NCBI GenBank assembly: GCA_017473085.1
Contig: JAFUNF010000011.1
Coordinates: forward strand, 111,876 to 175,875
Length of the DNA stretch: 64,000 nucleotides
DNA from: Clostridia bacterium
GTDB taxonomy: Bacteria > Bacillota > Clostridia > Oscillospirales > CAG-272
Direction of reading: 5' to 3'
The notes under the pieces: model-generated
What the model was told of the DNA's origin: nothing
Database searches by the model: none
Seen by the model: the letters and a program-made list of their open reading frames with translations, nothing else
Position numbers and translations under genes: made by a program
Shown here: in pieces, positions 23,965 to 25,840 of the stretch
Position numbering within the stretch: the stretch's first letter is position 1
How the letters are laid out: every line of letters starts with the position of its first letter

Positions 23965-24567
23965 ATGACAAAATATGGTTATGTAAGAGTTTCTACGATA
24001 GACCAAAATGAAGAACGACAAATGGTAGAAATGCGAAAAATAGGAATTTCAAAGGATTGTATATTCATTGATAAGCAGTCAGGAAAGGATTTTAACAGAA
24101 AGTCATATAAAACAATGTTGAAAAAGTTGAAAAAAGGTGACTTACTCTATATTCTGAGTATAGATAGGCTTGGCAGAAATTACGAGGATATACAAGAACA
24201 ATGGCGATTTCTTACGAGAGAAAAGAAAATTGACATTGCAGTAATTGACATGCCGTTATTAGATACTCGTAACGGAAAGGATTTAATGGGAACATTCATT
24301 GCAGATGTTGTGTTGCAAATTTTATCATTCGTAGCACAAACAGAAAGAGAAAACATTAGAACTCGTCAATCGCAAGGAATTGAAGCGGCAAAATTAAAAG
24401 GTGTTGTTTTTGGACGACCGAAAATTAAGTGTCCCGAAAATTTTGACGAAATTATCTGTACGTGGAAAAGTGGAGATATAACTACCGAAATTGCCGCCAA
24501 GCGGTGTGGTATGAGCATTCGAACTTTTTACCGAAAAATAAAAAATGCCAAAAAGCGTACTTTTTGA
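23965..24567 (+). CDS. Small serine recombinase (Hin/Gin invertase - resolvase family)
   Basis: [16 protein letters not shown] carries the catalytic Ser. 200 aa with a C-terminal HTH ([21 protein letters not shown]). A TTGAAA-18-TAAAAT promoter lies at about 23915-23944. Confidence 0.9.
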
Positions 24568-24569
24568 CA
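24546..24569. repeat. Left inverted repeat / hix-like crossover site (IRL)
   Basis: TGCCAAAAAGCGTACTTTTTGACA is itself a quasi-palindrome of two 12-bp half-sites. It contains the recombinase stop codon (24565-24567). Confidence 0.75.
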
Positions 24570-24591
24570 TGCGACTATTCCTCTACATATG

Positions 24592-24620
24592 AGTATATCA
24601 CAAGATAAATATTTTGTCAA
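24592..24620 (-). promoter_or_regulatory. Consensus sigma-A promoter inside the invertible segment, currently facing left (away from the RiPP operon)
   Basis: Minus strand reads TTGACA (24620-24615), a 17-nt spacer, tgaTATACT (-10 at 24597-24592 with a TG extension). Confidence 0.7.
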
Positions 24621-24697
24621 GACTTTCATTAAAAAAAGTTGCTTAGATAGTTACTTAACTCCTTTTAGTTAATATTATTGTCTTTAACATAATCAGT

Positions 24698-24721
24698 TGT
24701 CAAAAAGTACACTTTATGGCG
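24698..24721. repeat. Right inverted repeat / hix-like crossover site (IRR)
   Basis: TGTCAAAAAGTACACTTTATGGCG matches the reverse complement of IRL (TGTCAAAAAGTACGCTTTTTGGCA) at 21 of 24 positions. Confidence 0.75.
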
Positions 24722-24760
24722 AAAATATTTCTGACATTCATTTGAAAGGATAGACTTGAT

Positions 24761-25840
24761 GTGAGCGAAAGAAAAACAATTACTTTAATAGTTACAGAAA
24801 AATGTGATCTGGCTTGTTCATATTGCTATGAGCATAAAAAAACGGCAAGAAATATGTCTTTTGAAACTGCAAAGAGAATTATTGATAAAGAATTAGACAA
24901 AACAGAATATTCATCGTTTATGATAGAATTCTTTGGTGGTGAACCATTTTTAAATTTCGAATTAATAAAAGAAATTGTTGAATATGTCAACAAAACATAT
25001 AATAAAGATGTTCATTTCTTTGCTACAACAAATGGAACACAGGTGCACGGAGAAATCCAAGAATGGTTAAGAAAAAATGTAAATCAGTTTACTTTTGGCT
25101 TGAGCTTTGATGGAATTAGAGAAGCACAGAATATTAATCGTTCAAATAGCTACGATAAAATCGACTTAAATGTTTTTAGAGAATTATATCCAATGCAACC
25201 CATTAAAATGACTGTATCAGAAAAGACCTTGCCTATGTTTTTTGAATCAGTAAAATTTTTAACAGAACTTGGCTTTAAGATAGCGTGCAATTTGGCTTAC
25301 ATGGTAGATTGGTTGAAAGATGAAAATCGTACGATTTTAGAGGAACAACTTGACTTGTTAATTGACTATTATATAAATAACCCCGATTATCCCAAATGCA
25401 CAATGCTTGATTATGATATTGCAGTGTTGTCACATCCGTTGATGGATAGTGTGATTGTAAAAAAGTTTTGCGGATGTGGAACAGATATGAGAGTTTATGG
25501 TATTGATGGTGAGTGCTATCCTTGCCAACTGTTTTCTCCGATAGCATCACAAGAAAATGCCATAAAGTCAAAGGATTTTAATTTAACAAGAGACATACCT
25601 AAGGAGTTATATCCAAAAGAATGTAACGATTGCTATTATGAAAGAATTTGTGCATTTTGTTTAGGTAGCAATTATTTAAGTACCGGGGATATGTTTAAAC
25701 CTGATTTTTCGCGTTGTGAGTTAAATAAAATAATATTTAAGGCGAATGCCAAACTCAAGGCGCTTGAATGGGAAAAAGGCTTACTTAAGCACGATGATGA
25801 ACAAGGTTTGTTACGAAGTATTATTAAAATATTAGGTTAG
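24761..25840 (+). CDS. Radical SAM/SPASM-domain peptide-modifying enzyme 1 (anSME-like architecture, no N-terminal RRE)
   Basis: CDLACSYC (CX3CX2C) at residues 15-22. C-terminal Cys clusters CGCG...GECYPC and CNDCYYERICAFC. GTG start 10 nt after aaagga. Confidence 0.85.
   Translation: MSERKTITLIVTEKCDLACSYCYEHKKTARNMSFETAKRIIDKELDKTEYSSFMIEFFGGEPFLNFELIKEIVEYVNKTYNKDVHFFATTNGTQVHGEIQEWLRKNVNQFTFGLSFDGIREAQNINRSNSYDKIDLNVFRELYPMQPIKMTVSEKTLPMFFESVKFLTELGFKIACNLAYMVDWLKDENRTILEEQLDLLIDYYINNPDYPKCTMLDYDIAVLSHPLMDSVIVKKFCGCGTDMRVYGIDGECYPCQLFSPIASQENAIKSKDFNLTRDIPKELYPKECNDCYYERICAFCLGSNYLSTGDMFKPDFSRCELNKIIFKANAKLKALEWEKGLLKHDDEQGLLRSIIKILG

Follow-up and report, generated by a model that had tools for sequence, protein, structure and literature searches.

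The gene for a small serine recombinase is followed, on the same strand, by an operon predicted to make a peptide synthesized on the ribosome and then post-translationally modified (RiPP) in a 64,000-nucleotide stretch of a Clostridia bacterium genome (Oscillospirales, CAG-272; assembly GCA_017473085.1, contig JAFUNF010000011.1, positions 111,876 to 175,875), referred to here as the window. A short segment between the two is bracketed by inverted repeats and contains a predicted promoter that points back at the recombinase gene. The locus therefore raises the question of whether this segment inverts, and whether its orientation decides if the operon is transcribed. Our analysis indicates that the feature is very probably a working phase-variation promoter inverton of the serine-invertase kind, captured here in its OFF state. 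The parts on which this answer turns, in window coordinates, are:

23965..24567, plus strand: 200-residue small serine recombinase, a putative invertase (Pfam Resolvase, PF00239)
24546-24569: left crossover site TGCCAAAAAGCGTACTTTTTGACA, a palindrome of 11+2+11 whose core, GT, is at 24557-24558
24559..24708: invertible segment between the core dinucleotides, 152 bp from site centre to site centre; homologous segments are reverse-complemented between identical flanks in other samples
24592..24620, minus strand: predicted promoter TTGACA-17-TATACT with an extended -10 TG, a consensus match that points at the recombinase as sequenced
24698-24721: right crossover site TGTCAAAAAGTACACTTTATGGCG, an 11+2+11 palindrome with core AC at 24709-24710
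24761..25840, plus strand: predicted radical S-adenosylmethionine (rSAM) peptide maturase 1, rSAM1, with a GTG start (Pfam Radical_SAM, Fer4_12)

Crossover sites and inversion in related loci

Each site is divided by its core into two half-sites, TGCCAAAAAGC-GT-ACTTTTTGACA on the left and TGTCAAAAAGT-AC-ACTTTATGGCG on the right, and 21 of 24 positions agree when the left site is compared with the reverse-complemented right site. A repeat finder extended the inverted repeat to 32-nt arms with 81% identity (24547-24578 and 24689-24720). The left site covers the TGA stop codon of the recombinase gene (24565-24567), and the final 22 bases of the gene form most of the palindrome. A preliminary description of the locus, made from the sequence alone, had given the site coordinates, the 21/24 repeat, the overlap with the stop codon and the quasi-palindromic layout with GT and AC centres, all of which proved correct when the sequence was re-read. 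It had also named TTATCAAAAACC as the half-site recognized by Hin; this is indeed the reverse complement of the right half of hixL (PMC3241671, Table 3), and the outer half-site part TATCAAAA has the same sequence in the same register. When the window was searched with the degenerate site pattern of the wider family described below, allowing up to three mismatches, exactly two matches were obtained, the two crossover sites, and none was obtained in 100 shuffles. The left site conforms to the family consensus T-n-T/C-C-A-A-A-A-R-G-T|AC. The orientation of the cores was considered as a marker of the switch state and dropped, because by the geometry of strand exchange the GT..AC or AC..GT arrangement is set by the flanks and is unchanged by inversion.

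Comparison of orientation between homologous loci had been set beforehand as a test of the proposed switch. We examined contigs of relatives from independent metagenomes, found by exact-sequence look-ups of close recombinase homologues. A locus was scored as OFF when its promoter points toward the recombinase and as ON when it points toward the downstream gene, an rSAM gene in the close relatives. The opposite orientation was found. At a sister locus with a 95% identical recombinase, four contigs were ON (L083, L084, L085 and L088) and two were OFF (L086 and L087). The flanks of the two forms are 100% identical, and the inner segment is 100% identical only as its reverse complement; in the ON contigs, TTGACA-17-TGaTATGAT lies on the plus strand and points toward the rSAM gene. 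A T/C difference in the inner half-site is found in the left site of one form and in the right site of the other, as expected from exchange at the site centres.

An orthologous locus, identical to the window at 93.5% in the recombinase, 89% in rSAM1, 83% in the second maturase of the operon (rSAM2) and 80-82% in the ABC transporter proteins, was OFF in L089, L090 and L091, as in the window. A further contig, L092, ends 39 bp past the stop codon, and its tail agrees with the inverted form computed from L089 in 64 of 64 nt. Four more distant pairs (L117/L121, L025/L111, L151/L178 and L063/L160) have flanks that are 95-100% identical and inner segments that are 98-100% identical only in reverse complement, all with reciprocal exchange of half-sites. 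A G/A difference that lies two bases from the core in L025/L111 does not leave its own half-site, which confines the crossover to the 4-bp T-AC-A. These inversion products bear out the earlier prediction that exchange occurs within the central bases of the 24-bp sites. Loci upstream of Erm-like genes were also seen both ways (L257/L265 versus L258-264/L266), and in all, both orientations occur in nature at the orthologous and sister loci and at least five others. Several contigs (L091, L092 and L094) stop inside the segment or at its edge, as expected where both orientations coexist within a sample.

The cassette family and the spacing of its sites

In scans made with the recombinase, 80 loci were obtained from genomes (one genome per species), 80 from metagenomes and 80 from viruses, at 55-74% identity. 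A site no more than a few tens of bp past the recombinase stop codon, with a second site downstream whose core has the opposite orientation, was present at 48/80 genome loci and 50/80 metagenome loci, or 98 of the 160 bacterial relatives, so that the repeats are conserved at orthologous and related loci as the preliminary description required. The centres of the paired sites lie 105-229 bp apart, most often 136-138 bp. The pair occurs at only 2 of 79 viral loci, and the cassette is thus not simply an analogue of the phage Gin and Cin switches. The recombinases on phage and prophage contigs (L177-L256, from IMG/VR) are 55-63% identical to that of the window, and probably either have other target sites or function as resolvases.

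Pooling of the sites gave the half-site T-n-(T/C)-C-A-A-A-A-(A/G)-G-T beside an AC core, in which A(-5), A(-4), G(-2) and T(-1) each occur in 95% of sites or more. The outer half-sites fall into three classes, TnTC, TTTG and TACA, which are paired with three versions of the putative C-terminal recognition helix of the recombinase. Identity of the recombinase C-terminus is 49.9% within a half-site class and 33.6% between classes, while for the catalytic N-terminal domain the values are 75% and 71%. This co-variation argues that the recombinases read these sites.

Among the paired loci L003-L179, centre-to-centre distances cluster at about 105, 116, 126, 137, 147, 157, 168, 177, 190 and 200 bp, a period of 10.4 bp with a vector strength of 0.70; all of 5000 jittered null sets reached 0.43 or less. 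A helical-phase constraint on so short a segment points to direct synapsis of the sites across a tight DNA loop.

The 114 paired loci, which include 16 contigs of close homologues and the window, were grouped by similarity of the inner segment into 79 clusters. A promoter-like element lies near one end of the segment in 63 of these clusters, pointing toward the recombinase in 46, toward the downstream gene in 10 and both ways in 7. By consensus match, the predicted inner promoter faces the gene that it would regulate in one orientation only. Counted per locus, 74 were OFF, 20 ON and 20 ambiguous. The first open reading frame (ORF) past the distal site is co-directional in all but 1 of 47 examined GTDB loci, and the cargo is diverse: BspA-type leucine-rich repeat, SPFH, VWA, autotransporter, SLH, sugar transferase, TIR and helicase proteins were found. 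In the subclade of the window, the cargo consists of three different rSAM peptide clusters.

Several loci depart from the common layout. Both sites of L068, L107, L129 and L247 have a symmetric GTATAC centre (core TA), which leaves the core unable to define how the sites are oriented to each other. Three sites follow the recombinase gene in L039, L049, L064, L066 and L072, which suggests two adjacent or nested invertible segments. L026, from a Lachnospiraceae metagenome-assembled genome (MAG), and L082, from a MAG labelled Bacteroides, have near-identical inner segments (local alignment score 96), a similarity across phyla that could reflect horizontal transfer or a binning error.

The Erm-like loci L257-L266 encode a recombinase (P0011) that is 74% identical to that of the window, and their inverton, with core AA, lies ~0-150 bp past the recombinase stop codon and before a gene resembling Erm-family 23S rRNA methyltransferases (Erm23S_rRNA_broad, 211.6 bits against a cut-off of 212; Erm(42), 279 bits). 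The promoter points toward this gene in L257 and L265 and is inverted in the eight other contigs. These loci are on mobilisable elements with a relaxase, MobC, a zeta toxin and AadA_C, and a sister locus (L267/L268, recombinase P0009) has a spacing of 124 bp. A 2021 preprint described phase-variable resistance genes as exclusive to Bacteroidales.

Proposed control of the peptide operon and alternative explanations

Inversion takes position x to 49267 - x. The minus-strand promoter of the segment, which is one of the 11 best in the window by consensus score (two at 12/12 and nine, including this one, at 11/12 plus TG), would thereby be placed on the plus strand with its -35 at 24647-24652 and its -10 at 24670-24675. 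An ON-state transcript would be predicted to start at ~24682 and to run through the right site to the GTG at 24761, with a 5' untranslated region of ~78 nt; the ribosome-binding site (RBS) of rSAM1, AAAGGA, is at 24745-24750. On the plus strand from the right site to 27000, the best promoter-like match as sequenced scores 9/12, about the level of chance. The preliminary description had called the inner promoter comparable to the best in the window and had seen no comparably good fixed promoter for the operon, and both statements held. An Rfam scan of 23500-27000 matched zero families. Since the operon has no good promoter as sequenced and the predicted ON promoter faces rSAM1, we take the segment to be an ON/OFF switch of the RiPP operon. 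That it is also the main determinant of operon expression seems probable, although we hold this with somewhat less confidence than that the inverton works.

Three steps are inferred, namely that the adjacent recombinase catalyses the inversion, that the inner promoter is active and that the operon is expressed according to orientation. Recombinase dimers would bind both hix-like 24-bp palindromes and the two sites would synapse over a tight loop of ~150 bp; cleavage at the central dinucleotides (GT on the left, AC on the right), rotation of one half of the complex and re-ligation would then flip the 152-bp segment. In the OFF state, the strong sigma-70-type promoter would fire leftward, and its transcripts would meet the left-site hairpin and U-run or run antisense into the recombinase gene. 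In the ON state, the promoter would lie at ~24647-24675 on the plus strand and would transcribe the right site and then the rSAM, precursor, rSAM-SPASM and ABC transporter genes from 24761 to 30403, such that the modified peptide would be made by a subpopulation only. Two further predicted transcription signals belong to this scheme:

23910..23939, plus strand: candidate recombinase promoter TTGAAA-18-TAAAAT (10/12 in a consensus scan, weak alone)
24535..24570, minus strand: terminator-like element for leftward OFF-state transcripts, the left-site hairpin (11-pair stem) followed by TTTTTATTTT

The left palindrome has UUUUUAUUUU behind it on the minus strand, and a folding energy of -17.1 kcal/mol (z = -4.3) was obtained for the RNA. 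In the family as a whole, 32% of clusters have a T-run after the hairpin on the recombinase side and 6% have one on the cargo side, with a background of 3%; it therefore seems that leftward transcripts meet a stop more often than rightward transcripts do. Such asymmetric exits would fit a switch designed to give its productive output by transcription to the right.

Two other features of the segment were noted. A second minus-strand promoter-like match, TTGACA-18-AATAAT (11/12, 24674-24703), takes its TTGACA from the inner half of the right site; as TGTCAA half-sites mimic -35 boxes, a match of this kind close to a site is probably incidental. A minus-strand ATG (24568-24570), preceded by an RBS, GAGGA, at ~24579-24583, lies on the inner edge of the left site. 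In the OFF state this start opens a 58-codon ORF antisense to the recombinase, and in the ON state it would give an 18-codon upstream ORF whose TAG (24751-24753) ends on the RBS of rSAM1. The RBS-ATG is found in L083, L086 and L089, and the RBS is missing in L093. The 58-codon frame is open in four OFF loci but was rejected as a gene, as its RBS is not conserved in L093; the frame is open because the recombinase C-terminus has no Leu (TTA/CTA) or Ser (TCA) codons there.

The operon that would be switched continues beyond rSAM1 as follows:

25879..26285, plus strand: decayed precursor-gene copies, one frameshifted and one 5'-truncated (from reading of the sequence)
26342..26512, plus strand: Cys-rich precursor peptide 1, 56 residues, with a leader common to precursor 2 and the L089 precursor
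26569..26751, plus strand: Cys-rich precursor peptide 2, 60 residues, near-identical to the 60-residue precursor of the orthologous locus L089
26867..28258, plus strand: rSAM/SPASM maturase 2, rSAM2 (Pfam Radical_SAM, SPASM)
between the rSAM/SPASM gene and the ABC transporter, plus strand: 65-residue ORF
28520..30403, plus strand: ABC transporter, ATPase and ABC-2 permease, for export or immunity (Pfam ABC_tran, ABC2_membrane_3), where the co-directional operon ends

With rSAM/SPASM maturases, Cys-rich precursors and a transporter, the operon has the components of an rSAM RiPP cluster. In NCBIfam, rSAM1 comes closest to the PapB ranthipeptide maturase and to the CXXX-repeat rSAM maturase, with both scores under the curated cut-off, and the cluster is best described as ranthipeptide- or sactipeptide-like. 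In the ~500-bp gap between rSAM1 and the precursor genes, one decayed copy retains a leader-like start, MKVTEELITKFKGAI, and is frameshifted before the Cys-rich core; the other is a 5'-truncated precursor 1.

Several points weigh against a working switch that governs the operon at this very locus. All promoter calls were made by consensus matching. A plus-strand terminator was sought between the recombinase gene and rSAM1 and none was detected. The window's own locus was OFF in all three copies read (the window, L001/L096 and L002); searches for exact copies of the recombinase and of the rSAM1 protein each gave 7 contigs, and no ON form was found among the three copies of the locus for which orientation was read. 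The right outer half-site departs from the consensus at two positions, with C at -11 (T in 87% of sites) and T at -6. Finally, with its 152-bp spacing the locus lies out of the family's phase by about half a helical turn. The promoter inversion proposed in the preliminary description stands for the orthologous and sister loci, with the window matching their OFF state, while the window's own locus has never been seen ON.

Two explanations build on these points. In the first, which we consider unlikely, the segment inverts but the operon is driven mainly by read-through from the recombinase promoter or by an unrecognised fixed promoter, and the switch modulates the recombinase by antisense transcription or interference, or drives a small antisense product. 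With no plus-strand terminator before rSAM1, such read-through could give expression independent of orientation, and the excess of assemblies with the promoter toward the recombinase (74 OFF versus 20 ON), together with the RBS-ATG that opens the antisense frame in four OFF loci, would speak for it. The first downstream gene is nevertheless co-directional at nearly all loci whatever the cargo, the terminator-like T-run often follows the leftward exit and not the rightward one, and the antisense frame is accounted for by codon content and lacks its RBS in L093.

In the second, which we find slightly more doubtful still, the window holds a fossil switch, locked OFF, for instance by its divergent right outer half-site or its out-of-phase spacing, in front of a RiPP cluster that is silent or decaying. 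The exclusive OFF state of the three copies, the C at -11 and T at -6, and the decayed precursor copies at 25879-26285 would all be explained in this way. Against it, the recombinase gene has an intact ORF whose product shares 93.5-95% identity with the recombinases of loci that flip; the T at -6 is also present in the inverting loci L083 and L089, and L083 likewise lacks T at -11. The whole subclade of the window (141, 143 and 152 bp) is about half a turn off phase, and its 141-bp sister and 152-bp orthologous loci still invert, the spacing in L089/L092 being identical to that of the window. A majority of OFF loci is also the norm for the family. We accordingly retain the working inverton as the preferred reading of the locus.

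The recombinase, known systems and mobility

The recombinase matches Pfam PF00239 over residues 4-147 (E=3e-28), and its motifs YVRVS(10)T, with the nucleophile Ser10, and SIDRLGR align with Sin. Sin / Tn552 Bin3 is its closest solved homologue, the ranking being Sin (E = 1e-29), gamma-delta (3e-21), Tn3 resolvase (1e-18) and Gin (1e-14). As to a putative C-terminal helix-turn-helix DNA-binding domain, the alignment of the whole protein with gamma-delta resolvase spans residues 2-193, the C-terminal 63 residues alone gave no significant match in the PDB or Pfam, and the co-variation of C-terminal class with outer half-site class lends indirect support. By sequence the protein falls outside the Hin/Gin-type (Din) clade, Gin being a weaker match than Sin, gamma-delta or Tn3 resolvase, and it scores 43.5 bits against a cut-off of 272 for the Bacteroides Mpi master invertase model (NCBIfam NF009949). 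It is therefore not to be classed with the Din or Mpi families. Of the serine invertase named in the preliminary description, the serine recombinase and the Hin-like architecture of the sites stand, whereas the protein itself is nearer to the Sin/Bin3 and gamma-delta resolvases than to the Gin type.

It is very improbable that the protein is instead a mobile-element resolvase, with res-like or accidental palindromes and inversions that are assembly artefacts, since this kinship with resolvases, the low-GC island described below and the relatives on mobilisable elements and viral contigs are outweighed by sites that are inverted rather than direct, single at each end and matched only twice in 64 kb, by base-exact reciprocal half-site exchange in several locus families that are independent and differ in sample and assembly source, by repeats of 24-32 bp where contig names such as k141_... 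suggest a longer assembly k-mer, and by the presence of the site pair in only 2/79 viral relatives.

The mechanism, a serine-invertase promoter inverton, is already known; of interest here are the RiPP cargo, the breadth and portability of the cassette and the phased minimal loop. The Din systems Hin, Gin, Cin and Pin, which include the Salmonella flagellar switch and the tail-fibre switches of phages Mu and P1, likewise pair a small serine recombinase with two inverted sites, and the hix and gix sites are also imperfect palindromes of two half-sites around a 2-bp core. The present loci share with them exchange at a 2-bp core between two inverted sites, which the natural products place within T-AC-A, and share with Hin a segment that bears a promoter. 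They differ in the bases at the core (AC/GT, with AA in one subclade) and next to it (GGT/AGT, not ACC), in segments of 105-229 bp with 10.4-bp phasing against ~1-4 kb, and in a recombinase gene that lies outside the segment. Fis is not known from the Firmicutes/Clostridia hosts, which makes a Fis-bound enhancer unlikely for the present switch. The catalytic-domain motifs of Sin / Tn552 Bin3 and the beta-type Firmicutes resolvases align with the present recombinase, but those enzymes act on direct-repeat res sites with accessory sites, whereas here the sites are single and inverted and inversion products are seen.

The promoter invertons of Bacteroides (Mpi, the tyrosine invertases of capsule loci and PhaseFinder-type invertons, including phase-variable resistance genes) also place a short promoter segment 3' of an invertase gene and control a co-directional accessory operon, and their cassettes occur on mobile elements with variable cargo; the present family differs in its repeat motif, its sigma-70 promoter (TTGACA/TATAAT), its gut Clostridia hosts and a cargo that here is an rSAM RiPP cluster. 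E. coli fimS and the flgB, cwpV and cmrRST switches of Clostridioides difficile similarly carry a promoter or regulatory element on an invertible segment of ~150-300 bp and give ON and OFF subpopulations. These switches use tyrosine recombinases (FimB/FimE and RecV, respectively), and their repeats are unrelated to the present sites. Our literature search found no paper linking invertons with RiPP or bacteriocin clusters, and no paper or supplement describing the site motif or the recombinase family, although earlier cataloguing of some members is possible, as a key 2019 survey was outside the search. An inverton study of hCom2 described Clostridia groups 139 and 125 and tied group 139 to tyrosine recombinases and longer segments; no link to the present family could be made for either group.

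The genomic setting bears on how the locus was acquired. The block at ~23.7-30.6 kb, comprising recombinase, switch and operon, has a GC content of 30-35% against 38-41% in its flanks and forms an island between asnB and radA-like genes. The orthologous cassette L089 is in an unrelated genomic context, and together with the low GC this suggests horizontal acquisition of the whole unit. Directly 5' of the recombinase, the sister and orthologous loci have a conserved 220-residue ORF (L083 47-709, L089 5236-5898 and L093 121-783), for which no Pfam or NCBIfam match was found. It is absent from the window, which has a 275-bp spacer after asnB instead.

It is plausible, though just short of what we would favour, that the locus is one instance of an undescribed, horizontally mobile cassette of gut Firmicutes, in which a Sin-like serine recombinase and a minimal, helically phased invertible promoter of ~137 bp stand before very different accessory cargo: at least three rSAM peptide clusters, an Erm-like gene carried by mobilisable elements, surface proteins of the BspA type and defence-like genes. 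If this is true, many 'silent' biosynthetic clusters of gut Clostridia would owe their silence to nothing more than a population in the OFF state, and a bias toward OFF would be inherent, since in that state the promoter and the recombinase gene are convergent. Should the switch operate as proposed, a modified peptide, probably a bacteriocin or signal, would be phase-variable in a gut Clostridia species, and the cost of its production would be borne by a subpopulation only; cryptic RiPP clusters behind such switches could then be activated by locking the promoter ON. The 10.4-bp phasing of segments of 105-229 bp offers a compact model for serine-recombinase synapsis over a very small loop without Fis. 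Found before surface, defence and Erm-like resistance-type genes in many gut Firmicutes, the cassette may be a general, transferable regulator of accessory traits.

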